Positions 1,185 to 20,803 of a stretch of 64,000 bases of DNA are shown here, in pieces. This stretch comes from an uncultured Bacilli bacterium (lineage in GTDB: Bacteria; Bacillota_I; Bacilli_A; RF39; UBA660): contig OZ007022.1 in assembly GCA_963931515.1 (NCBI GenBank), positions 589,747 through 653,746 of the forward strand. The letters are read 5' to 3'. The notes below the pieces were generated by a model. The model was not told where the DNA came from and searched no databases. It saw only the letters and a program-made list of their open reading frames with translations. A program made the translations under genes and the position numbers. Within the stretch, counting starts at the first letter, position 1. Each line of letters starts with the position of its first letter.

Positions 1185-1368
1185 AAATACGAAAATGATA
1201 TATCATAGAACAAAATACCAAAATAAATTTTGGTATTAGCTTACCTCACGGTAAGCTCTTTCTACTTCATAGCAGTCTTAGACTCCTCCATAGACCAGTA
1301 TCGGATAGTCGCTACCCTAATTATATCATTTATTTACCAAAATTTATTGATTAGATAGATTGATCTAG
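1185..1368 (-). ncRNA. putative omega-RNA (right-end element RNA) of the TnpB element, with guide taken from the adjacent flank
   Basis: The conserved structured segment downstream of the tnpB stop (agggtagcgactatccgatactggtctatggaggagtctaagactgctatgaagtagaaagagcttaccgtgaggtaagctaataccaaaatttattttggtattttgttctat) is identical in both copies and ends exactly where the flanks diverge. The guide would be the about 16-20 nt beyond base 1205. Confidence 0.45.
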
Positions 1369-2595
1369 ATATAACATATATTTTTCTAAACCTTTAAACA
1401 TTATATTAACTGCTGCATTATAATCACGAGTGTGCTTTGTATGACATACTGGACATTCCCATTTCCTTAACTTCAAATCTTTTACTTCTTTATTTTGATA
1501 ATCACATATACTGCATATCTGACTGCTTGGATAATATCTATCTATTTGTATTAATCTCTTATTATTCCAGTTAGCTTTATATTTAAGTACTCTGATGATT
1601 TCTGATATTGGGTTTTCATTTAAGCCTTTAGCTACATAGTGATTTTTCTGCATACTTTTTACATCTAAATTCTCAGTTACTATAATGTCATTCTCGTTTA
1701 TTAGTTTATTTGTTATATCATGTATCATATGTTTTCTTGCATTTCTTATTTTTTGATACAATCTTTGGATTTTTAGTTTCATCTTATATCTATTTTTACT
1801 TCCAGACTTACATCTAGATATTCCTCTTTGTAAACCTACCATTCTTTTTGTATTTAGTTTTATTTTGTTTTCTATCTTTTCATTAAATGATGTTACTATT
1901 AAATCTTTTATTCCTAAATCTATACCGATTATACTTGTTGGTACAAATGATGGCCTTATTAATTCTTCTTCGATTAAGACACTTACATAATATTTACCGG
2001 CATCTTTCTTAACTGCTGCACTTTTTAACTCACCAGGTATAATATTTTTATTTCTATATCCTCTTATCTTTACTTCTTTTAATTTTGGTAAAGTTATTGT
2101 TTTGTTTTTTAAATCTAGTTTTATGCTGTTATAATTATTACCTTTATAACTACTTTTAATATTATTAGTTTTATAACTTTCATGAACGCCTTTTGCTTTA
2201 AATCTAGGATAACCGTTTCCATTAAAAAATCTTTTATAAGCATCTTCTAAATTAAATAGACTTGTTCTTAAAGCGCAACTATCTACTTCTTTCAAAAACG
2301 GATATTCTTTTGAAAGTGATGGAATTAATTTTATTTGATCATATACACTTTTACTTTTTCCAGTTTTTTTATATTCTTTAATTTTATCATCCAAAAAATA
2401 ATTATATACAAACCTAGAGCATCCAATAGTTTTATTAATTAACTCTTCTTGCTTTTCAGTTGGATACATTCTAAATACATAGCCTTTTAGTATTTTCATA
2501 TCATCACCTTCAATCTTTGGTGTATTCAGTATATCACAAACATTTGTTCTTGTAAACATTTTTTTTACAAAGCAAATTCCTAGTATATAAAAAAT
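1205..2595 (-). mobile_element. IS200/IS605-family element, TnpB-only (IS1341-like), copy A
   Basis: Ends were defined by comparison with copy B (8513..9903). Identity starts about 37 nt upstream of the tnpB ATG (shared ...ttttttatatactaggaatttgctttgtaaaaaaaATG) and stops at ...ttttgttctat, after which the flanks diverge. No tnpA is present. Confidence 0.8.
1351..2559 (-). CDS. tnpB: TnpB RNA-guided endonuclease (IS605 OrfB family transposase accessory protein)
   Basis: 402 aa. RuvC-like motifs and a C-terminal zinc finger CxxC...CxxC (CSICDY...CPVCHTKHTRDYNAAVNI). Near-identical to ORF 8549..9757. Confidence 0.9.
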   Translation of the reverse strand: MFTRTNVCDILNTPKIEGDDMKILKGYVFRMYPTEKQEELINKTIGCSRFVYNYFLDDKIKEYKKTGKSKSVYDQIKLIPSLSKEYPFLKEVDSCALRTSLFNLEDAYKRFFNGNGYPRFKAKGVHESYKTNNIKSSYKGNNYNSIKLDLKNKTITLPKLKEVKIRGYRNKNIIPGELKSAAVKKDAGKYYVSVLIEEELIRPSFVPTSIIGIDLGIKDLIVTSFNEKIENKIKLNTKRMVGLQRGISRCKSGSKNRYKMKLKIQRLYQKIRNARKHMIHDITNKLINENDIIVTENLDVKSMQKNHYVAKGLNENPISEIIRVLKYKANWNNKRLIQIDRYYPSSQICSICDYQNKEVKDLKLRKWECPVCHTKHTRDYNAAVNIMFKGLEKYMLYLDQSI

Positions 2596-8512: not shown

Positions 8513-9903
8513 TTTTTTTATATACTAGGAATTTGCTTTGTAAAAAAAATGTTTACAAGAACAAATGTTTGTGATATACTGAATACACCAAAGATTGAAG
8601 GTGATGATATGAAAATACTAAAAGGCTATGTATTTAGAATGTATCCAACTGAAAAGCAAGAAGAGTTAATTAATAAAACTATTGGATGCTCTAGGTTTGT
8701 ATATAATTATTTTTTGGATGATAAAATTAAAGAATATAAAAAAACTGGAAAAAGTAAAAGTGTATATGATCAAATAAAATTAATTCCATCACTTTCAAAA
8801 GAATATCCGTTTTTGAAAGAAGTAGATAGTTGCGCTTTAAGAACAAGTCTATTTAATTTAGAAGATGCTTATAAAAGATTTTTTAATGGAAACGGTTATC
8901 CTAGATTTAAAGCAAAAGGCGTTCATGAAAGTTATAAAACTAATAATATTAAAAGTAGTTATAAAGGTAATAATTATAACAGCATAAAATTAGATTTAAA
9001 AAATAAAACAATAACTTTACCAAAATTAAAAGAAGTAAAGATAAGAGGATATAGAAATAAAAATATTATACCTGGTGAGTTAAAAAGTGCAGCAGTTAAG
9101 AAAGATGCCGGTAAATATTATGTAAGTGTCTTAACCAACGAAGAATTAATAAGGCCATCATTTGTACCAACAAGTATAATCGGTATAGATTTAGGAATAA
9201 AAGATTTAATAGTAACATCATTTAATGAAAAGATAGAAAACAAAATAAAACTAAATACAAAAAGAATGGTAGGTTTACAAAGAGGAATATCTAGATGTAA
9301 GTCTGGAAGTAAAAATAGATATAAGATGAAACTAAAAATCCAAAGATTGTATCAAAAAATAAGAAATGCAAGAAAACATATGATACATGATATAACAAAT
9401 AAACTAATAAACGAGAATGACATTATAGTAACTGAGAATTTAGATGTAAAAAGTATGCAGAAAAATCACTATGTAGCTAAAGGCTTAAATGAAAACCCAA
9501 TATCAGAAATCATCAGAGTACTTAAATATAAAGCTAACTGGAATAATAAGAGATTAATACAAATAGATAGATATTATCCAAGCAGTCAGATATGCAGTAT
9601 ATGTGATTATCAAAATAAAGAAGCAAAAGATTTGAAGTTAAGGAAATGGGAATGTCCAGTATGTCATACAAAGCACACTCGTGATTATAATGCAGCAGTT
9701 AATATAATGTTTAAAGGTTTAGAAAAATATATGTTATATCTAGATCAATCTATCTAATCAATAAATTTTGGTAAATAAATAATATAATTAGGGTAGCGAC
9801 TATCCGATACTGGTCTATGGAGGAGTCTAAGACTGCTATGAAGTAGAAAGAGCTTACCGTGAGGTAAGCTAATACCAAAATTTATTTTGGTATTTTGTTC
9901 TAT
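8513..9903 (+). mobile_element. IS200/IS605-family element, TnpB-only, copy B (inverted relative to copy A)
   Basis: About 1391 bp. Nearly identical to the reverse complement of 1205..2595. The flanks differ immediately outside these coordinates. Confidence 0.8.
8549..9757 (+). CDS. tnpB: TnpB RNA-guided endonuclease
   Basis: 402 aa. Differs from copy A at only about 3 residues (TNE versus IEE, A versus V). Confidence 0.9.
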   Translation: MFTRTNVCDILNTPKIEGDDMKILKGYVFRMYPTEKQEELINKTIGCSRFVYNYFLDDKIKEYKKTGKSKSVYDQIKLIPSLSKEYPFLKEVDSCALRTSLFNLEDAYKRFFNGNGYPRFKAKGVHESYKTNNIKSSYKGNNYNSIKLDLKNKTITLPKLKEVKIRGYRNKNIIPGELKSAAVKKDAGKYYVSVLTNEELIRPSFVPTSIIGIDLGIKDLIVTSFNEKIENKIKLNTKRMVGLQRGISRCKSGSKNRYKMKLKIQRLYQKIRNARKHMIHDITNKLINENDIIVTENLDVKSMQKNHYVAKGLNENPISEIIRVLKYKANWNNKRLIQIDRYYPSSQICSICDYQNKEAKDLKLRKWECPVCHTKHTRDYNAAVNIMFKGLEKYMLYLDQSI

Positions 9904-10290: not shown

Positions 10291-10429
10291 GAGATTAAAA
10301 GTAAATTGATTAATTTTTTCTACTGGATTCTCTATATGAAAAAATTATATATCTATGATTTTTAATTATATTATTATACTTTAAAAAAAACAAATAGTAC
10401 GGTATAATATAGTGGAAATGGAGGGTATT

Positions 10430-11011
10430 ATGGCTAAAGAAAGAGAAGTTACGATTCTTAATATTGATGAGAAGGGTTTTGTAAGCAAGTTATTGAATAA
10501 TGGAGCAGTAAAAAAAGATGAATTTTTGCAAAGAAGATATACATATGACTTTAATCCGATATTGCCTAATAAATGGATTAGGCTTAGGACAAATGGTAAA
10601 AAAACGACTTTGACAATTAAGGAAATCAAAGATAAAACGGCTATAGATGGGACTATGGAGTTAGAAACAGTTGTGGGTGATTTTGATGTTATGAATGATA
10701 TTTTAAAGGAACTTGGATATAGATATCGTAATTATCAAGAAAATTACCGAATTATTTATTCTCTGGATAATGTAGAAATTTCTATTGATTCTTGGCCTTT
10801 GATACCAACATATGCCGAAATAGAGGGTAAAACAAATGAAGATGTTGTTATGGCTTTAGAAAAGCTTGGATATACTTTGGATGATGCAACTACTTTAGAT
10901 GTGACATCTATTTATAATGAAATATATGGTATTGATTTACTTAAAATAAAAGAATTAAAGTTTGAAGGGAGTAATCATGAAAGTATGCTACAATATAACA
11001 AGCAAATGTAA
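10430..11011 (+). CDS. CYTH-like (triphosphate tunnel metalloenzyme / CyaB-like) domain protein
   Basis: About 193 aa. Acidic E-x-E motifs near both termini (KEREV... and YAEIEGK), and the size and pattern are typical of CYTH. A -10 box tataat lies at 10403-10408 and the RBS ggaggg before ATG 10430. The ORF track lists an upstream GTG at 10412. Confidence 0.5.
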   Translation: MAKEREVTILNIDEKGFVSKLLNNGAVKKDEFLQRRYTYDFNPILPNKWIRLRTNGKKTTLTIKEIKDKTAIDGTMELETVVGDFDVMNDILKELGYRYRNYQENYRIIYSLDNVEISIDSWPLIPTYAEIEGKTNEDVVMALEKLGYTLDDATTLDVTSIYNEIYGIDLLKIKELKFEGSNHESMLQYNKQM

Positions 11012-11714
11012 TAGAAATTGCAGATATTGTTTTAAGTTTAATAGGGAAGATTTGACTTTAGAAGAAAATGAAAGAGTTTTAGATAATTTATTTAAACTAG
11101 GTGTGAAAAAGATTTCATGGACTGGTGGCGAACCTTTTTTATATAAAGATTTGCCTCATTTATTAAAGAAAAGTAAAGAATATGGAATTATTAATTCTGT
11201 TAATACCAATTTAACGACCGTTGATGTGGATAATTTGGAAGAAAAAATTCAAAATGTTGACCAGCTAATTATTTCTTTAGATTTTATTTCTGATGATTTG
11301 AATGAAAAATATGGTATAGGAAAAGATTATTATGCTCATGTTTCTAAAATTTTAAAAAAAATAAAACAAATTAATCCTGATATAATATTACAATTAAATA
11401 CAGTATTATTTAATGGCAATATTAATTTTATGGATGAGCTTTATGAGGAAATATGCAAGTATGATATAGATTATTGGAAGATAATTAGGTTTTTACCAAT
11501 TAGGGGCAAAGCTTATAAGGAGAAAGATAATTTATCAATAACAGACGAACAATTTGATGAATTTACTAGAAATTTTAAAAGTCGAAAACAGAATTTTGAA
11601 ATTATTATTCATGGTTTAAAAGAAATGGAAAGAAAACATATTATTGTTTTAAGTTCAGGTAAACTTATTTATAGTGAAAATGGTAAGGATGAAGAAATTA
11701 AGTCATTAATTTAA
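10977..11714 (+). CDS. viperin-like radical SAM enzyme (prokaryotic viperin homolog)
   Basis: About 245 aa. The CNRNCRYCF radical-SAM cluster sits in a VxYxxTxxCNxxCxxCF context, and a [13 protein letters not shown] SAM-binding motif is present. Colinear matches to viperin continue through the protein ([22 protein letters not shown] versus [39 protein letters not shown] versus [26 protein letters not shown]...[15 protein letters not shown] versus WKVFQCLLIEG...VIGDEEFERFLERHK). The start overlaps the end of the CYTH gene. Confidence 0.7.
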   Translation: [245 protein letters not shown]

Positions 11715-11729
11715 GGAAAGGATGCAAAA

Positions 11730-12623
11730 ATGGATAAGAATATCAATTTAAATTTATATCGAATTTTTTATGAAGTTGCACAATATCATAGTATTTCAGA
11801 TGCTGCAAAAAATATGTATTTGTCACAGCCAGCAATAAGTAAAGCAATTAAAAATTTAGAAAGTGAACTTAATGCAATGCTGTTTTATAGAACCTTAAAT
11901 GGTATTATTTTAACTGATAAAGGTAAGGAACTATATGGGTTAGTAGAAGAAGCTTTAGGAAATTTTAGACAAGCAGAGAAGAAGATGCTGGAAAATAAGA
12001 ATTTAGAAAAGGGTTCTTTATCTATTGGTGTAAGATCTAATGTGGCTTCATTTTATTTACTTGATAAGATTGCGACTTTTCATGAAAAATATAATAAGAT
12101 TGATATTGTTATTATTGATAGGCCTAGTAGTGAGTTACTTAGAATGCTTTCTAATAATGAACTTGATTTTGTTTTGGATTCTGTTTCGGCAAAAGATGAA
12201 TTAGATGGTTTTGATGTTAAACCTTTAGATACTTTTACGCATACTTTTATAGTTTTGCCCGATTTAAATATTTTACCTAAAAGAGAAAAATATCATTTAA
12301 AAGATTTAGAATCACTACCGTTAATATTGCCGGTTTCTCATAGTTCACATAGACAATATTTAAATAATTTAGCTAAAGAAAACAATACTGTTTTCAATAA
12401 TGTTCTTTCGATAGAAACAAGCGAACTTATTTATAGTATGGTAAAAAAAGGTCTTGGAATAGGTTATATTTTGAGAGATATGGTTAAGAGTGATATTGAA
12501 TGTGGTAATTTAAAAGAAATAAAAATATATGAGGAACTTCCTGAAATATCTTTAAATTTAATATGTAAAGAAAGAAATTTAACTGAAGCACCTAGACATT
12601 TTATAGATGAATATTTAAAATAA
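11730..12623 (+). CDS. LysR-family transcriptional regulator
   Basis: 297 aa. N-terminal HTH (ISDAAKNMYLSQPAISKAIKNLE) and a C-terminal substrate-binding domain. Confidence 0.85.
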   Translation: MDKNINLNLYRIFYEVAQYHSISDAAKNMYLSQPAISKAIKNLESELNAMLFYRTLNGIILTDKGKELYGLVEEALGNFRQAEKKMLENKNLEKGSLSIGVRSNVASFYLLDKIATFHEKYNKIDIVIIDRPSSELLRMLSNNELDFVLDSVSAKDELDGFDVKPLDTFTHTFIVLPDLNILPKREKYHLKDLESLPLILPVSHSSHRQYLNNLAKENNTVFNNVLSIETSELIYSMVKKGLGIGYILRDMVKSDIECGNLKEIKIYEELPEISLNLICKERNLTEAPRHFIDEYLK

Positions 12624-12787: not shown

Positions 12788-14266
12788 ATGTATAAGGTGA
12801 TTGCAATTAGTGGTTATTCTGGAAGTGGAAAAACTACTATAAGTGAAGAGCTATTAAAAAGGGGTAATGAGTTAGTTTACTTTGATTTTGGTTTTTTATT
12901 TAGACCACTTACTTATTATTTAATAAACGAATTATCTTTAGATGAAGACGGTATTAGAGAGTTTGTTTTAAGTGGAAAATTGCAGCAACAGATTGATCTT
13001 ACTTATAAAATTACCTGTAATAAAGTGGAAGTAGGAATTAATGGTAATTTTTATAGTTATGAGGTTTTAAACACCCCCAAAATGAATATGGATACAGTAA
13101 TGGTTGGATCAATTGTCGGTGATTCTTTAAATGATGCTTTAAGAAGTATAGTTGATGATTTAAAATGTGAAAGTAATGTTTTGCTTAATGCGAGAAGGCC
13201 AGTTGTTGCTTATCCAGAAGTGGATTATCATATTTTTTTAGAAACTGATTTTGATGAGAGAGTTAAAAGAAAAATGTTGATGAATGGTGAGAATTATGAA
13301 ATTACTTTAAAAAAGTTAAAAGAACGTGATCAAAAAGAGAAGGATAGCGGTTTTTGGAAAAAGTATGATTTTACCCAAACTATCGATACTACAAATTTAT
13401 CTAAGAATGATGTCTTAGAGAGAGTACTTGGGATTTTAAATGATGATTTTGCACACTTTAATAATTTGACATTGATTTTAGGCTCTTATATGTGTAATAA
13501 AAACTGTCCATATTGTATTGCTAAAAATAATCAAAAGTTTTCTACCTGCGATAATTTAGAATCTTTGGATGAAATTTTAAATGAACTTATGGAAAATAAT
13601 ATAAAATTTAAAAGATTTGTTCTCAGTGGAAATGGGGAACCATCATTTTATTCTTTAGAAGATTTAGAATTAATCAAAGAATGTTTAATCAAATATAGAA
13701 ATTTGTTTGAAATAGTTAGGGTACATTCTTCGGGTAATATATTTAGTGAGGAAGATAAATTTAACCTTTTTAATCTTACTGATTTACCGCTAGAGTTTGA
13801 AATTCTCAGAGTAGCATTAAATTCTGATGTTGATATGAAGGTACTTGGATATAGTGAGGATTATTTAAAGAGTTTATTATTTAGAAACGGTAATATAAAA
13901 TGCGATATTGCTTTGACGGATTATTTAGAATGTTCTGATCTGTCATTACAGTTAAATGATTTTTTAAAAAACAACCCATCAATTAAGAAGGTGAGATTCA
14001 AAAGGCTATTAGTTGGCGATAATGATACAACAAAGCAGGCAAAATGGGTTAAAGAACATTCACTTGATGAAGATGCTATTCAAAAGGTTATTTTAGAACT
14101 TGGTTTAACTTTAAAAGATGATATTTATCAATCAGATGATAGGAAAATTCTTTATAAAACAAGCGGAGATTATGATTTTGATTATGTAATAAATGATGGA
14201 AAGCTTCAAAATTATAAGAATGAAATAAGTAGGGTTAAAGTGCTTAGAAGGAAGCTAGGTGGTTAG
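12788..14266 (+). CDS. fusion protein: N-terminal cytidylate-kinase-like NMP kinase plus C-terminal viperin-like radical SAM domain
   Basis: 492 aa. The N-terminal domain has a P-loop IAISGYSGSGKTTI, FDFGFLFR (compare Cmk LDTGAMYR), and an NMP-binding/LID segment aligning with Cmk (NARRPVVAYPEVDYHIFLETDFDERVKRKM...LKERDQKEKDSG). The C-terminal domain has CNKNCPYC, a RFVLSGNGEPSF SAM-binding motif, and looser matches to the viperin core (LEFEILRVALNSDVDMKVLGYS). Confidence 0.65.
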   Translation: MYKVIAISGYSGSGKTTISEELLKRGNELVYFDFGFLFRPLTYYLINELSLDEDGIREFVLSGKLQQQIDLTYKITCNKVEVGINGNFYSYEVLNTPKMNMDTVMVGSIVGDSLNDALRSIVDDLKCESNVLLNARRPVVAYPEVDYHIFLETDFDERVKRKMLMNGENYEITLKKLKERDQKEKDSGFWKKYDFTQTIDTTNLSKNDVLERVLGILNDDFAHFNNLTLILGSYMCNKNCPYCIAKNNQKFSTCDNLESLDEILNELMENNIKFKRFVLSGNGEPSFYSLEDLELIKECLIKYRNLFEIVRVHSSGNIFSEEDKFNLFNLTDLPLEFEILRVALNSDVDMKVLGYSEDYLKSLLFRNGNIKCDIALTDYLECSDLSLQLNDFLKNNPSIKKVRFKRLLVGDNDTTKQAKWVKEHSLDEDAIQKVILELGLTLKDDIYQSDDRKILYKTSGDYDFDYVINDGKLQNYKNEISRVKVLRRKLGG

Positions 14267-14267
14267 G

Positions 14268-14978
14268 ATGAGGCAGATACTTAAATTTATTGGAACGGGT
14301 GGAGCTTTTTCTACAAAATATGTAAATAATTCTGCTTACTATTATTTAAAAAATGATGAAATACTTTTGTTTGACTCAGGAGAAACTGTTTTTCATGAAA
14401 TTTTAAAGTTAAATATTATAAATGAAAATATTAAAAGGGTTGATATTATTATTACTCATTTTCACAGTGACCATGTTGGTAGTTTAGGTAGTTTGGTGTT
14501 TTATTTAAGATTTAAAAAGGTAAGGGAAGTGAATATAATATTTCCGATTAAGAGAGTACCTTATATGTTATTAAATATATATGGTATTGATGAAAACCTT
14601 TATAATGTAAAAACACCTAAGGAGATAGAAGGATATTATATTAAAGAATATGAGCAATTACATGGCGATGTTAGTGATAATGGTAAAATTATACCAATGC
14701 CAAGTTATGGCTATCATGTAATTAGCGATAATGATAATTTCTTTTACAGTGGCGATACGTGCACCATAAGTGATATAATATTAGAGAAGTTTAAGAGTAA
14801 GAAAATTAAAGTTATGTATCACGAAGTGGCAACAGATGGTTATAAATCACATATGCAATTAGATGATTTGGCTAAATTAATTGAATTTGAAGATAGAAAG
14901 AGAATTTTCTGTATGCATATGGGTGATAATGTTGATGTTTTAAAAATTAAAAATTTAGGATTTGAAAGTGTGAGGTAA
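14268..14978 (+). CDS. metallo-beta-lactamase-fold hydrolase
   Basis: About 236 aa. HxHxDH motif (ITHFHSDHVGS) and downstream His/Asp ligands. Overlaps the stop of the preceding gene, so likely co-transcribed. Confidence 0.75.
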   Translation: MRQILKFIGTGGAFSTKYVNNSAYYYLKNDEILLFDSGETVFHEILKLNIINENIKRVDIIITHFHSDHVGSLGSLVFYLRFKKVREVNIIFPIKRVPYMLLNIYGIDENLYNVKTPKEIEGYYIKEYEQLHGDVSDNGKIIPMPSYGYHVISDNDNFFYSGDTCTISDIILEKFKSKKIKVMYHEVATDGYKSHMQLDDLAKLIEFEDRKRIFCMHMGDNVDVLKIKNLGFESVR

Positions 14979-14980
14979 TT

Positions 14981-15568
14981 ATGAAAGAAGAATTAGAAAT
15001 TTGTGTAAGGTCTTTGGTACCTTTTAATGAACTTTATGATGATATGATTAAAAAAGGTTTTCACGAACAAGAAAATTTTATTTTAAATGATATTTATATG
15101 GTTAAGGATGATGTGGAAGTATTTTTGGAAAACGAAGAAGTTATTTTTTCTAATTATGTTTTAATTAGAGAAACTGTTGGAAAAAGAAAAATGCTTGTTT
15201 TAAAGCATAAAGAAGTAAATGAAAATGGAGAGATAGTAAAACAAGAGTCAGTTAAATGCCCAATTACTGATATTCATAAGGCTTATGATTTTATGAAAGC
15301 TATCGGCTATAAAAAATTATTTGAAATAAGTGATCATAATGTTTTAATGAGTAATGGAAAAAACGAAATTTATATTCAAGATGTTAAAGGTATTGGAACT
15401 TATGTAGAGATGGAACAAAAGAATTTACTTTTAGAAAATAATAATGGCAATACGATTGATGAGATGAAAAATATTTTAAAGGAATATGATTTAAAAATTG
15501 ATGTAAGTGATTATTTTGTTAGAAAAGCCTATGATGCTTTAAAAGAAAATGTAGATTTAAGAAAATAA
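14981..15568 (+). CDS. second CYTH-like domain protein
   Basis: 195 aa. N-terminal EELEI and C-terminal YVEMEQK acidic motifs. Same size class as 10430..11011, but a different sequence. Confidence 0.45.
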   Translation: MKEELEICVRSLVPFNELYDDMIKKGFHEQENFILNDIYMVKDDVEVFLENEEVIFSNYVLIRETVGKRKMLVLKHKEVNENGEIVKQESVKCPITDIHKAYDFMKAIGYKKLFEISDHNVLMSNGKNEIYIQDVKGIGTYVEMEQKNLLLENNNGNTIDEMKNILKEYDLKIDVSDYFVRKAYDALKENVDLRK

Positions 15569-15804
15569 TGTGAAGTTTTGTAAAGATGCTAGAAAAAAAG
15601 ATATATATATGATATAATTTAATTGTCTAAAAGAAGAATACCGCTATGAAAAACCTACTAAGTATAACGATTGGGAATCTAATTCACTGGTGGTGTAGAA
15701 TACTTTAATTTATTAAAGGATCCTAAAGCTGGTGATGTGATGCCCACCTGGGAGATCAGGTTTTTAATTCGTTAAGGTTTCTCTTTTGGACTTTGCTTAT
15801 TTAT

Positions 15805-16020: not shown

Positions 16021-19000
16021 ATGAAAGTAAAAAACTGTCTAGGGGTGGCATGTTTACTACTAGCACTTTGTGTCAGCCTATTTTTAAATTTTGGAGTTAA
16101 CCATGATAATCCTAGTTTAAAAATGGCTTCAAATGAGAGCAATATAGCTCTTAATGGCAACCAGATTAACACAATATTTAATTCTAACCAGAATGGCATA
16201 CAGAAGTTAAGTACTTCACATTTTGTTCGTGAAGTAGGAAACTATAATTTGGCAGATTATTTGAATGAAAATAGTTATTTTACTATTGACGGCACAAAAG
16301 TTGATGAAGACTTTAAGGATACTGTCGAATATGGAGATGTTATTGACATTCATTTAGAGTGGTCTTTGCCAAATACAACAGATTGGACCACAGAAAATAC
16401 TTTTAGTTATGAACTTCCAGCTGGATTTACATTTACTAATGTCCAAAATGGAGTGATAAGAAATGGGGCCGAGGCTGTCGGTGTTTATACTATTTCTGGA
16501 AATCAAGTAACTATTAGGTATACTGATGAAGAGTTTTTAAAATTAAGTAATATTACTGGTACTTTAAATGTATCAGGTGAGATTACTGAAAGTGCTATAG
16601 GTGGTGGCGATGGAGGTAGGATTGATTTAGAAATTCCTGGTGTTGGAACAGTTATAATCAATGTTAAACCAACTAGTGCTTTAAGAATTCATAAATCAGT
16701 TGAAAAGATTGATACTGATACTTATGAGTTTAAAGTTGAAGTAACTGCGATAACTGATAATACCAATGTGGTCATTACTGATTCAATGGGTCAGTATTTA
16801 GAGCTTATCACTGATTCATTTAAGATTACAAAGGCTGATAGTAATCAAAATGTTCAAGATATGACTGATAAAATTAAACCTACTATTAATGGAACAACTG
16901 GCTTTGTTTATACAATTGATAAGTTAAATAAAGGTGATGTCGTAACCATAACTTATAGAGCCAATGTTTTAGATGGTGGATTTATTAGTAGCTCTACTGA
17001 TAATGATTTAAGAAATACAGCAAGAGTTAAAAGTGATGAACTTCCAAATGAAATTACAGCTACTGCGTTAGTTAGTACTTATAAAGCAGATGTATCTAAA
17101 GATGGTAGATATAATCTTAGTGATTATACTGCAGTTTGGACTATTACAGTAAAACCGGGAGAAAAAGGTGTAACGTTAAAAGACGTTATTGCTGATGGTC
17201 AAGAAATTACAGGTGATATAACAGTTACCGAAAGTGATGATAATGGTTCTAGTTATCATGATTCTGAATTAACTATTACAGCTGATGAGTTACAAAAAGG
17301 TTATACTTTTGCAGAAGATGCGACAGGACAAAAAGTATACAAAATTACATTTAAAACAAAAGCAACTGGTGAACAAACTGAGTTATATAACGAAGCTACA
17401 ATTTATGTTGGGGAAAATCATAGTGTATCTGATGATGCGACTGTTGGTCTTGTTCCTGGAGTAACTATTTCTAAATATGTTAAAAGTGCAGATGACAGGG
17501 AAGGAGTTATTCACTGGAATACAAAGGTAACAATACCTAATATCGATGGAAAACAAAAAAAGGTTTCCTTTAAAGATGTTTTAGGTGATGGCTTAACATT
17601 AGATGTAACTACTGTAAAAGTTAATGATACTTCTATTAATGAAACTACAAATCCTAAGCTAGAATATAATGCAAGTAAGACAGAATTTACAATTGATTTT
17701 GGTAATATTGAACCAGGTAAAGAGTTAAATATTTCTTATGATACGACATTTGATAACAGTGAATCAAAAACATTTTATAATACGTCTACTGTTACTGTAG
17801 ATGGTGAAGGAAAATCATCTACAGGTAAATATGAGTATAATAAGAAAGACAATTATATTCAAAAGTATTTGAATAATTTTAGCGATAACTTTAGTAAAAC
17901 AGGTATTGCTAGATGGGAGATTAAAATTGATAGGTTACCTAAAGATGTTAAGGATACTTATGTAACAGATACTATTCCTGATGGTATGGAATATGTGGAA
18001 GGCTCTGCAAAATTAGTGTTAAATTATAATCCTTATACAACTTATAAACTTGAACCAAAACTTGAAGATGGTAAGTTAATATTTGATTTAGATGATTATA
18101 TTGATGAGCTTAGTGCGAATAGTGCTGGAGCATCTATTTTCTACGATAGCAGGTTAACTGATATTTTTGCTGATCAAAAGACTTATACTAACAAGGCTAA
18201 TATTACAATTAATGATTATACATATCCAGATGTAGAAGCATCTATTACAGGTAAAGTTACTCAGTTACTTGATAAAACAGCAGTCTATAATACTTATACG
18301 GCACCAGAAGTAGAATATACTATAAAGGTTAATGAGGGTAAGGCTGATATTGTTAAAGATTCTGACACTTTAGTTTTGGATGATGAAATGGGTTCAGCTT
18401 TAGAATTTATTAGAGGAAGTTTAAAGATTAATGGTGAAGCTGCAGATCCTGATAGTTATGAATGGAATCAAGAGACTCATATGTTAACGCTTCATGTTCC
18501 TGACAGTGAATCATTAATAATCACATATAAGGCTAGAGTTACATTAAGTGCTGGCGAAGAGTTAAACGAAGATAATGCTTTTAATAAAGTTAATTTATTT
18601 GTTTATGATGAAAATTCCGCTGAAAGTAAATGGATTTTGAAAGGTGAAGTTTTAGAAAGCTCAGCTACTTCTTCAGGAAATTCACAAATGATTTATGTAT
18701 ATAAATATAAAGATGGTGATAAGAATACACCACTTGCTGATGTTGAGTTTAATTTATATGAATTAGGCTTTACTGGTAGTGGTAATACTTTTGAGTTAAC
18801 TGGTGAAGAAAATTTAGTTTCTACATTAAAAACTAAAGATGATGGATATGCTAGTTATAGTGGTATTAATTATGATAGTGTATATAAATTAGTTGAGTCT
18901 AAAACTGTAGATGGTTATATTTTAGATACGACGGTATATTACTTTGTATATCCAGGAAATGATGGAATTGAATATCCAGATAGTATTGAACAATATTATC

Positions 19001-20136
19001 AAGTAAAAACTTTTGAGGTTGGTAATGAATATTCAATGATTAATATAAATGTTACTAAGGTTTGGAATGATAATGACTATGAAAATAGACCTGATTCAAT
19101 TACAGTTTATTTAAAACGCAATAATGATTATGTTTATGAAAATGGTCAAAAGAAATCAGTTACTTTGAGTAGTAGTAATAATTGGCAAGCTTCTTTTGAA
19201 AGATTAGCTAAATATGATGAAAATCATAATCGTTATGATTATACTATAGAGGAAGCGGTACCAGAACATTATAATGAAGAGTATAGTAGTGAAAGTACAG
19301 TTGATGATAAAAACTACACTATTACTAATACCCTTGAAGATAGTAATTTGACTATTAGTAAGGTTGTAGCTGGTAATGCTGGTGAGACTGATAGATACTT
19401 TACTTTTAAAGTTATTTTAACAGATAAAAATGGCAATCCTTTAGAAGAGTCTTTCCATTATACTGGTTCTAAAGAGGGCTTTATAAAATCTGGTGATACT
19501 ATTAAGTTAAAACATGGTGAATCGATTACGATTAATGGACTTCCTTACGGAACTTTATATGAAGTTACAGAGTTAGAGGCTAATAGTGACAGATATGAAA
19601 CTACAGCTACTAATGATAAAGGAAAAATTACTTTTGACGAAAACAAGGTAGTATTTACGAATACGAAAAATGAAGGAAGTTTAACTATCGATAAAACTGT
19701 TGGTGGTAATAGTGGTGAGACTGATAGATACTTTAATTTTAAAGTTATATTATACGATGAAAATGGTGAAGTTTTAGAAGGTGAATATAAATACATTGGA
19801 AGTAAAACTGGCACTATTAAATCTGGTGATATAATTAAATTAAAACATGGTGAGTCTATTACGATTATTGGTTTACCAGTAGGAGCAAGCTATAAAGTTA
19901 CCGAACTTGAAGCAGATAGTGATGGTTATAAGACATCAGTTACTAATGATGGTGGAGTTATTGGCTTAGAAGGAAATGTTAGTTCATTTATGAATTACAA
20001 AGATGTGTTTGAAAAACCATATCAGAAAGCTAATATTCCACAAACTGGTGGTAGTGATAATACGTCACTTTATGGAATTTTAACTATAGCTTTTGGAATG
20101 CTCAGTGTTTATTTATTAAAAAGAAAACATGCTTAG
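16021..20136 (+). CDS. sortase-anchored surface adhesin with Cna-B-type and SpaA-like isopeptide domains
   Basis: 1371 aa. N-terminal signal peptide. A Cna-B-type domain (VTKVWNDNDYENRPDSITVYLKRN...). Two tandem roughly 110-aa modules (..GETDRYFTFKVIL...IKLKHGESITI..). A C-terminal sorting signal IPQTGG plus a hydrophobic stretch and KRKHA. A promoter (ttgaat, 16 nt spacer, tataat) and RBS gaggag lie upstream. Confidence 0.85.
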   Translation: MKVKNCLGVACLLLALCVSLFLNFGVNHDNPSLKMASNESNIALNGNQINTIFNSNQNGIQKLSTSHFVREVGNYNLADYLNENSYFTIDGTKVDEDFKDTVEYGDVIDIHLEWSLPNTTDWTTENTFSYELPAGFTFTNVQNGVIRNGAEAVGVYTISGNQVTIRYTDEEFLKLSNITGTLNVSGEITESAIGGGDGGRIDLEIPGVGTVIINVKPTSALRIHKSVEKIDTDTYEFKVEVTAITDNTNVVITDSMGQYLELITDSFKITKADSNQNVQDMTDKIKPTINGTTGFVYTIDKLNKGDVVTITYRANVLDGGFISSSTDNDLRNTARVKSDELPNEITATALVSTYKADVSKDGRYNLSDYTAVWTITVKPGEKGVTLKDVIADGQEITGDITVTESDDNGSSYHDSELTITADELQKGYTFAEDATGQKVYKITFKTKATGEQTELYNEATIYVGENHSVSDDATVGLVPGVTISKYVKSADDREGVIHWNTKVTIPNIDGKQKKVSFKDVLGDGLTLDVTTVKVNDTSINETTNPKLEYNASKTEFTIDFGNIEPGKELNISYDTTFDNSESKTFYNTSTVTVDGEGKSSTGKYEYNKKDNYIQKYLNNFSDNFSKTGIARWEIKIDRLPKDVKDTYVTDTIPDGMEYVEGSAKLVLNYNPYTTYKLEPKLEDGKLIFDLDDYIDELSANSAGASIFYDSRLTDIFADQKTYTNKANITINDYTYPDVEASITGKVTQLLDKTAVYNTYTAPEVEYTIKVNEGKADIVKDSDTLVLDDEMGSALEFIRGSLKINGEAADPDSYEWNQETHMLTLHVPDSESLIITYKARVTLSAGEELNEDNAFNKVNLFVYDENSAESKWILKGEVLESSATSSGNSQMIYVYKYKDGDKNTPLADVEFNLYELGFTGSGNTFELTGEENLVSTLKTKDDGYASYSGINYDSVYKLVESKTVDGYILDTTVYYFVYPGNDGIEYPDSIEQYYQVKTFEVGNEYSMININVTKVWNDNDYENRPDSITVYLKRNNDYVYENGQKKSVTLSSSNNWQASFERLAKYDENHNRYDYTIEEAVPEHYNEEYSSESTVDDKNYTITNTLEDSNLTISKVVAGNAGETDRYFTFKVILTDKNGNPLEESFHYTGSKEGFIKSGDTIKLKHGESITINGLPYGTLYEVTELEANSDRYETTATNDKGKITFDENKVVFTNTKNEGSLTIDKTVGGNSGETDRYFNFKVILYDENGEVLEGEYKYIGSKTGTIKSGDIIKLKHGESITIIGLPVGASYKVTELEADSDGYKTSVTNDGGVIGLEGNVSSFMNYKDVFEKPYQKANIPQTGGSDNTSLYGILTIAFGMLSVYLLKRKHA

Positions 20137-20803
20137 AAAAGTACCTGTAATATTATGTTTAGTTATTTGTCTAATATTTTTAAGTTTATTTACTTGGGAG
20201 TCTTTAGACAAGAAAGAAGGGGAGACATTTTATAGAAATGTGCTCCCCTCAACTAATATAAAGGATATAAATAAATTAGAAAATGAGTATGAAGGAGCTA
20301 CTGGTTATATTGATATTCCTAATACAAGCATTAGTTATCCAATTATGCAAGGTGAGGATAATTCATATTATTTAAAACATTTACCAAATGGTGATAGAAA
20401 TAAAATGGGATCTATATTTTTAGATTACCGAAACAATGGGTTTAATGATAAGAATACGATTATATATGGTCATAATTTTAATAACGGTACAATGTTTAGT
20501 GATTTACTTAATTATAAGTCTTTTGAATTTTATAAGAATCATTCAAATTATAAGATTTATACTAGTGATAAAGTAATTGAGGTTGCTATTTTTGCTGTTT
20601 ATATAGCGGATGCTACTAAGGATGAGTTACCAATTAATTTTGAGTCTACTGATTTTGAAGATTATTTAGATATGGTATTGGAAAGTAATTTGATAAATAG
20701 TGAAGTTAGTATTGATAGTGAAGATAATTTAATTACTTTATGTACGTGTAGTAATGGTTCTTGGAAAAATAGACTAATAGTTAGTGGTAAAGTTTTAAAT
20801 TAA
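20129..20803 (+). CDS. sortase (class B/C-like) dedicated to the upstream adhesin
   Basis: 224 aa. N-terminal TM anchor, catalytic His (IIYGHNF), TLCTC active-site Cys motif, and a conserved Arg near the C-terminus. Its start overlaps the adhesin stop. Confidence 0.8.
   Translation: MLRKVPVILCLVICLIFLSLFTWESLDKKEGETFYRNVLPSTNIKDINKLENEYEGATGYIDIPNTSISYPIMQGEDNSYYLKHLPNGDRNKMGSIFLDYRNNGFNDKNTIIYGHNFNNGTMFSDLLNYKSFEFYKNHSNYKIYTSDKVIEVAIFAVYIADATKDELPINFESTDFEDYLDMVLESNLINSEVSIDSEDNLITLCTCSNGSWKNRLIVSGKVLN

Follow-up and report, generated by a model that had tools for sequence, protein, structure and literature searches.

The window analysed here, a stretch of 64,000 nt from contig OZ007022.1 of an uncultured Bacilli bacterium, carries on its plus strand a gene (12788..14266) that encodes a protein of 492 aa in which a domain similar to cytidylate kinase (Cmk) is followed by a radical S-adenosylmethionine (SAM) domain. 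The reading frame begins with ATG, runs through 492 codons without interruption and is preceded by a strong GGAGG Shine-Dalgarno sequence located 6-7 nt 5' of the start. Both domains scored above the gathering thresholds (GA) of Pfam, Cytidylate_kin over residues 5-216 (48.6 bits, GA 26) and Radical_SAM over residues 234-313 (30.7 bits, GA 29.5), and they are separated by a short linker of variable length (residues 217-226; 13436..13465, +) that differs by 0-10 residues among aligned orthologues. Among 5.8 billion clusters searched, about 48 consist of full-length orthologues (484-559 aa, 39-88% identity) that keep both domains, and an identical protein of 492 aa is encoded on 11 contigs, which come from several independent assemblies and share the gene order. 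The kinase-radical SAM fusion, which an earlier sequence-only reading of this DNA had proposed as a single polypeptide, is thus confirmed as a genuine and conserved protein, and the motifs quoted in that reading were all found: the P-loop GYSGSGKTT, FDFGFLFR, CNKNCPYC (C236, C240 and C243) and SGNGEPS (residues 280-286). An artefact in which a frameshift or an assembly error joined two neighbouring genes, an idea that the occurrence of kinase and radical SAM as separate genes in some relatives (loci L016 and L018) might favour, is effectively refuted, because the identical protein recurs on 11 independent contigs, full-length orthologues make up some 48 divergent clusters, neither a stop codon nor a long homopolymer interrupts the junction (nt 13436-13465), and the linker stays in frame across the orthologues. 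Its hosts are uncultured Bacillota of the gut that carry the labels 'uncultured Bacilli', Candidatus Coprosoma or Candidatus Ventrenecus and whose chromosomes measure about 1.5 Mb; Clostridia have more distant forms.

The kinase and radical SAM domains

The N-terminal domain (residues 1-216; 12788..13435, +) has a true bacterial Cmk fold, as judged from sequence and predicted structure, and is probably an active phosphotransferase. Its match to PF02224 covers 208 of the 211 profile positions, and a phmmer search of the PDB with this domain returned Cmk entries only. When the N-terminal half of the full-length AlphaFold2 (AF2) model was submitted to Foldseek, it aligned over the whole length of each Cmk with M. 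abscessus 4die (target-normalised TM-score 0.83) and with 2cmk and 1kdo (about 0.8; 0.81 at the lower end for 4die and 2cmk), so the claim that the first 220 residues or so can be aligned to Cmk holds. The likeness to the E. coli (1kdo/2cmk) and M. abscessus enzymes includes the insert that binds the nucleoside monophosphate (NMP), the P-loop (G9-T17; nt 12812-12838, +) and the phosphate-handling residues, since the P-loop lysine corresponds to K15 and E. coli R41, R131, R157/R158 and R181 correspond to R39, R136, R161/K162 and R180, respectively. Residue invariance was judged in an alignment of 25 of the roughly 48 full-length orthologues, in which G9, G14, K15, R39, R136, R137, R158, R161, R180, D181 and E184 were invariant; E184 aligns with D185 of E. 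coli Cmk, and F34 is also invariant in the family. Unlike Cmk, however, the domain shares only 17-23% identity with the Cmk structures, reaches 49.9 bits with the NCBIfam Cmk equivalog TIGR00017 (cutoff 135.55) and is attached to a radical SAM domain. The base pocket differs as well. All four positions that we take to be the cytosine contacts of E. coli Cmk are changed in the alignment to 1kdo: S36 is replaced by F34, R110 by N115 and R188 by S187, and at D132 there is a gap, next to R137. The interpretation of this pocket as that of a CMP kinase is therefore not upheld, and specificity for CMP or UMP cannot be assumed.

The C-terminal domain (residues 227-492; 13466..14266, +) matches PF04055 (30.7 bits), and its AF2 model has a predicted local distance difference test (pLDDT) score of 92.8. 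The CX3CX2C cluster motif (C236, C240 and C243; nt 13493-13516, +) and the SGNGE motif for SAM (S280-E284; nt 13625-13639, +) are both complete when the domain is properly aligned, and S280-E284 is invariant in the 25 fused orthologues. Across fused and standalone homologues together, the invariant residues are C236, C240, C243, G281-E284, R311, S315, G316, D349, Y359 and W420. On these grounds the domain is a plausible catalyst. Only three cysteines are invariant in the family, and no SPASM or auxiliary-cluster cysteine set was found in it. Unlike MoaA (1tv7), SuiB (5v1q) and SkfB (6efn), the domain has no second Fe-S cluster and no SPASM or twitch cysteines; the cutoffs of these families are missed widely.

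The CX3CX2C motif and the GGE-type motif are generic to the radical SAM superfamily and not specific to viperin, and the 'viperin-like' label that had been given to this domain did not survive the family searches. The viperin hidden Markov model (HMM) NF038283 gave 18.0 bits (cutoff 180) over residues 235-298 only, the pVip models of PADLOC gave 16-18 bits over the same part, which holds the Cys motif, and the domain lies below all viperin thresholds, including that of the further family model TIGR04278 (cutoff 450). No regions alignable to viperin were found past about residue 298 of the fusion protein. Among 25 family members the best pVip E-value was 5.6e-6, and none of the 25 matched the PADLOC profile 'Viperin-kinase fusion' (PDLC02905) at E <= 0.01. 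In a phmmer search of the PDB with the radical SAM domain, viperin was absent and the best match was Mmp10 (E 0.14). Weak NCBIfam matches of about 21 bits were obtained with NrdG2 and with a TatD-linked radical SAM family, and the top Foldseek matches were the peptide epimerase EpeE and PflA, viperin not being among the top 50. About 120 C-terminal residues of the domain are family-specific. Membership in viperin or in the pVip-kinase fusions was accordingly rejected on the HMM scores, and by sequence the domain belongs to a small, distinct, unnamed and uncharacterised radical SAM family.

Nor would a kinase joined to a viperin be unprecedented in itself, since PADLOC includes a dedicated model for such fusions (PDLC02905) and a preprint reported that 484 kinases lie near viperins, that 18 fusions with a kinase occur in eukaryotes and that a triphosphatase/cyclase domain is attached in 4 more (10.1101/2023.09.13.557418). 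The present protein differs from viperin with CMPK2 and from the viperin-kinase fusions in both halves: its radical SAM domain falls under every viperin HMM threshold and has its own C-terminal part of 120 residues, and its kinase is of the bacterial Cmk type (PF02224) with a replaced base pocket.

The gene cluster and its rearrangements

The fusion gene is the fourth of six genes that lie in the same orientation (+), in the order CYTH1, short viperin-like gene, LysR, kinase-radical SAM fusion, Apyc1-like metallo-beta-lactamase (MBL) fold gene and CYTH2. The first (10412..11011) encodes a CYTH/triphosphate tunnel metalloenzyme (TTM) protein (Pfam CYTH, 27 bits; TIGR00318 cyaB, 43 bits) whose PDB matches are the TTM structures 1yem and 7ns8, and it overlaps the next gene.

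That second gene (10977..11714, +) encodes a radical SAM protein of 245 aa which, from its sequence, is a short protein closest to viperin among known families. The presence of a viperin-like gene upstream of the fusion, as had been noted, is thus real: the protein scored 128.7 bits with viperin_w_prok (NF038283), under the cutoff of 180 and with an alignment that ends at model position 250 of 281; it scored 132 bits with PADLOC pVip, and its best PDB sequence matches are viperins (E 4e-17 to 1e-12). The viperin_w_prok model was the top family in 18 of 18 orthologues, and the protein also matches positions 182-430 of the fusion profile PDLC02905. The 62 relatives that were detected are all 220-268 aa long, nearly all of them 244-250 aa. 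The suggestion that the window holds two viperin paralogues was not borne out, since BLASTP between the two radical SAM proteins gave 23% identity over 102 aa (E 0.018), and hhalign of the two families aligned only 126 N-terminal columns. A C-terminal beta-hairpin motif shared by the two proteins ('SSGK'/'SGDY') was also considered and was rejected when hhalign of the C-terminal halves returned a probability of 1%.

The third gene (11730..12623, +) encodes a LysR-family regulator (Pfam HTH_1 and LysR_substrate) and is the best-conserved gene of the cluster, with 64-97% identity in syntenic loci. Between it and the fusion lies a spacer of 164 nt that contains a promoter-like site and an AT-rich hairpin with a T-run; a promoter scan was uninformative in this DNA of 27% GC, which gave 34 sigma-70-like sites against 45 in shuffled sequence. 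The MBL-fold hydrolase gene (14268..14978, +; alternative GTG start at 14259) begins 1 nt past the stop of the fusion. Its product is of the Apyc1/YhfI type and is probably a nucleotide phosphodiesterase, as indicated by full-length PDB matches to 7fct (E 2e-26) and to Apyc1 (7u2r/7t28, E 1e-17) and by an HxHxDH motif. It resembles the Apyc1/YhfI cyclic-nucleotide phosphodiesterases in these features and differs from Apyc1 in being chromosomal, in an operon with a kinase-radical SAM gene, and in a Pfam Anti-Pycsar_Apyc1 score of 46 bits, just under the cutoff of 50. The last gene (14981..15568, +) encodes a second CYTH protein, CyaB-like over its full length (TIGR00318, 41 bits). The position of a chromosomal Apyc1-similar gene between the kinase-radical SAM and the CyaB-like CYTH genes possibly reflects a pairing of cyclase and phosphodiesterase. 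Directly 3' of CYTH2 lies a 6S/SsrS RNA gene (15621-15796, +; Rfam RF00013, full length, 53.6 bits, gathering threshold 46.4), and the only terminator-like hairpin of the region on the plus strand (15746-15761) falls within it.

Beyond the cluster, two copies of an IS605-family OrfB/TnpB protein of 402 aa were observed, at 1351-2559 (-) and 8549-9757 (+), inverted and 99% identical (398/401 residues), with the domains HTH_OrfB_IS605, OrfB_IS605 and Cas12f1-like_TNB. The roughly 6 kb between them include a gene for aspartyl-tRNA synthetase, and the copy at 8549 stands immediately upstream of the cluster. This copy may be a recent insertion, since L005, a relative with 76% identity, has no ORF of 402 aa at the site. 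On the 3' side, 16021-20803 (+) encodes a SpaA/Cna_B-type LPXTG surface protein of 1371 aa and a sortase; the large surface-protein gene is fragmented or much shorter in the sister assemblies L002 and L003, which suggests a variable or poorly assembling locus.

The conservation of the cluster was followed by tblastn of seven window proteins against 83 related loci. The full six-gene order was found in L004-L006, L008, L011, L012 and L017, with fusion identity down to 52-56%. CYTH1 is syntenic in L004-L017, the MBL gene follows the fusion in 14 loci, and CYTH2 lies downstream of kinase-radical SAM genes both in Bacilli and in Clostridia. In L016 the order of the cluster is permuted, and in L007 and L010 the fusion, MBL and CYTH2 occur with no viperin-like gene nearby. 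Many of the contigs with an orthologue of the fusion are equal in length to contigs with an orthologue of the short viperin, and so are apparently identical with them. The flanks are housekeeping genes in close relatives and vary among more distant genomes.

Split and re-shuffled arrangements also occur. Kinase and radical SAM protein have separate, adjacent genes in L016, where the place of the linker is taken by a TAA stop, a Shine-Dalgarno site and an ATG, and in L018 they are separate genes in different frames. In the Clostridia (L015, L020 and P0082) the Cmk-like domain is fused to CYTH instead, the radical SAM gene is separate and adjacent, and it is followed by a second CYTH and a PHP phosphoesterase; a NUDIX hydrolase is added in L014 and L018. 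By this Rosetta-stone evidence, the fused, split and re-shuffled forms argue for a common pathway of kinase, CYTH and radical SAM.

Relatives of the radical SAM domain

When a profile HMM of the radical SAM domain was run exhaustively against 1.84 billion representatives, it returned only 322 proteins at E <= 1e-3, 46 of them at E <= 1e-30. The next tier of matches consists of unclassified radical SAM proteins of 270-300 aa with weak scores to the MoaA and viperin models. Standalone homologues of about 273 aa, with 30-38% identity, were found in gut Alphaproteobacteria, Gastranaerophilales, Bacilli, Clostridia and a bacterium of the candidate phyla radiation (CPR). Their conserved operon, located within L023-L083 (e.g., L023 6549-10816 and L033 8934-13165), contains a PnuC-family transporter (126 bits), an NDT-like protein of 170 aa, the radical SAM protein, a fusion of CYTH with a P-loop kinase, and Ham1; in some loci a CofE-like ligase, an NrtR-type regulator and an HxGH nucleotidyltransferase are added. 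In its gene content, this operon looks like an undescribed module for nucleoside salvage or modification. A search of the 64-kb window for such partners found no PnuC, NDT, Ham1, NrtR or CofE-like gene.

Fusions of the radical SAM domain with the NDT-like domain itself also occur, with NDT at the N terminus in P0111 and P0118 and at the C terminus in P0132. In P0063 and in L074 a C-terminal NDT fusion is indicated by motif only, and Pfam finds no NDT domain in P0063; P0060 seemingly has the same all-alpha extension, judged by eye from the alignment, and Pfam detects none there.

Radical SAM homologues were also found on six phage contigs, and in two of the six a truncated class II core similar to seryl-tRNA synthetase (SerRS), of about 222-230 aa (tRNA-synt_2b, 43.9 bits), adjoins the homologue. 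The radical SAM and SerRS-like pair occurs in the IMG/VR phage contigs L084 (5986-7474) and L086 (5702-7459) and likewise in loci of Bacilli metagenome-assembled genomes (L064/L072, 9977-11669). In L086 the radical SAM gene is apparently split into two ORFs and there is a small PRA-PH/MazG-like gene (a weak, sub-threshold match). In the CPR bacterium Candidatus Uhrbacteria (L073, 3688-5530), two radical SAM paralogues of 320 and 304 aa lie in tandem, with a GC content far above that of the gut homologues.

Every recurrent partner of the radical SAM family binds or hydrolyses nucleosides or nucleotides, and no conserved glycyl-radical enzyme, ribonucleotide reductase (RNR) or precursor peptide was found near the family's genes in the loci examined. 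Together with the lack of SPASM cysteines in the family, this genomic context makes it well supported that the radical SAM domain acts on a nucleotide.

A proposed function and its alternatives

Viperin with CMPK2 is the classic example of a kinase-assisted radical SAM enzyme whose product is an antiviral nucleotide. This logic of kinase plus radical SAM is repeated here with another, very rare family of radical SAM enzymes and with a kinase of the Cmk type. We hypothesize, with a confidence that only slightly outweighs our doubt, that the protein is a bifunctional nucleotide enzyme whose two domains catalyse consecutive steps of one pathway, phosphorylation of an NMP and a reaction driven by the 5'-deoxyadenosyl radical. 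The kinase domain would phosphorylate an NMP other than ordinary CMP, perhaps a modified one; a substrate of this kind is probable because the base pocket is remodelled invariantly while the residues for ATP and phosphate are intact. The radical SAM domain, with its single cluster, would cleave SAM reductively and direct the 5'-deoxyadenosyl radical at the same nucleotide, most likely at the ribose by analogy with viperin and with MoaA-type chemistry. Two orders of the steps can be envisaged. The kinase may act first and feed the radical enzyme, as CMPK2 does for viperin, or it may come second and activate the modified NMP that the radical enzyme releases, and the latter order would explain why the base pocket is invariantly remodelled. 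The fusion forms the core of a conserved, LysR-linked operon whose CYTH and MBL partners (or PHP and NUDIX partners in other loci) would adjust the phosphates carried by the product. The likeliest output would be a modified nucleotide or a nucleoside analogue, which might serve either antiviral defence or nucleoside metabolism.

A more far-reaching version of this proposal is more doubtful, and we put it forward as a tentative possibility. It holds that the C-terminal domain represents a previously undescribed nucleotide-directed radical SAM family with a chemistry unlike that of viperin, repeatedly fused to NMP kinases, NDT-like N-glycosidases, CYTH proteins and NTP pyrophosphatases in gut bacteria and phages, which together with the short viperin, the two CYTH enzymes and the Apyc1-like phosphodiesterase would make a new modified nucleotide or nucleoside, which could act in immunity, as an antimetabolite or as an intermediate of salvage.

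Several points weigh against the bifunctional nucleotide enzyme. The changed base pocket could mean that NMP specificity was lost and not that a new one was gained. The radical SAM domain is not viperin by sequence, and the fold searches differ on its nearest structural neighbour. A nucleoside triphosphate (NTP) substrate is not assured, since the invariant basic residues of the domain are fewer than the six that presumably form the triphosphate site of viperin. In the full-length AF2 model (pLDDT 86.9) the two domains are well folded and pLDDT is lowest (62-69) in the blocks 231-250, just past the linker and over the Cys-motif loop; the predicted TM-score (pTM) is only 0.58, so that no fixed interdomain geometry, interface or channel is supported, and the covalent channelling of the substrate from kinase to radical enzyme, as the sequence-only reading had envisaged it, finds no backing in the model. 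Finally, a full-text search of the literature gave no paper describing the radical SAM family or the fusion architecture, and since no member of the family has been characterised, both substrate and chemistry are inferred.

The strongest competitor keeps the same enzymology and assigns it a housekeeping role, in which an exogenous nucleoside from the gut would be salvaged or broken down and no inhibitory analogue would be made. The kinase would then trap or activate a nucleoside phosphate, the radical step would alter the sugar or the base, and CYTH and MBL would recycle phosphates. Some pointers are to nucleoside metabolism of this kind: the LysR regulator is embedded in the cluster and is its best-conserved gene, the locus lies among housekeeping genes in close relatives, and the standalone homologues of small-genome gut Alphaproteobacteria, Gastranaerophilales, Bacilli and CPR share operons with PnuC, NDT-like protein, CYTH-kinase, Ham1, HxGH nucleotidyltransferase and an NrtR-type regulator. 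Other pointers are to phage-host conflict, with which the viperin-family neighbour and the Apyc1-type enzyme are both linked, as are the relatives borne by phage contigs; moreover, PnuC, NDT and Ham1 genes are missing from the 64-kb window, and the differing flanks of more distant genomes indicate that the cluster moves as a unit. We regard a purely housekeeping role as unlikely, yet as an alternative to be taken seriously.

A good deal less probable is a canonical prokaryotic viperin, that is, a synthase of ddhCTP or ddhUTP (3'-deoxy-3',4'-didehydro nucleotides), fused to a CMP/UMP kinase that would supply CTP or UTP, with the two radical SAM genes as viperin paralogues of different substrates in an anti-phage system. 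The short neighbour is indeed closest to viperin, but the fused domain reached a tenth of the viperin_w_prok cutoff, its pVip matches are limited to the Cys motif, no member of the family matched the pVip-kinase fusion model, and viperin stood outside the top 50 of Foldseek. Its C-terminal half is also unrelated to that of the viperin-like neighbour, the presumed cytosine-binding residues of Cmk are all replaced, and an embedded LysR and relatives linked to PnuC and NrtR are atypical of defence islands. That the radical SAM domain has a protein or peptide as its target, for example as a glycyl-radical-enzyme activase, an NrdG-like activase or a peptide maturase to which the kinase is fused incidentally, would agree with the NrdG2, TatD-linked, EpeE and PflA matches, but is very improbable given three invariant cysteines only, no conserved glycyl-radical enzyme, RNR or precursor peptide nearby, and recurrent partners that are all nucleotide enzymes, several of them covalently fused.

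Returning to the bifunctional nucleotide enzyme, the natural occurrence of fused and split variants offers a ready experimental system. If its product is a new nucleotide analogue, the protein would broaden the range of reactions used in nucleotide-based immunity or in antimetabolite production, and it would be a candidate enzyme for the chemoenzymatic synthesis of nucleoside analogues. For the family as a whole, the links to PnuC and to NDT-like proteins in small-genome gut bacteria may point to an unrecognised route of nucleoside salvage in the gut microbiome.

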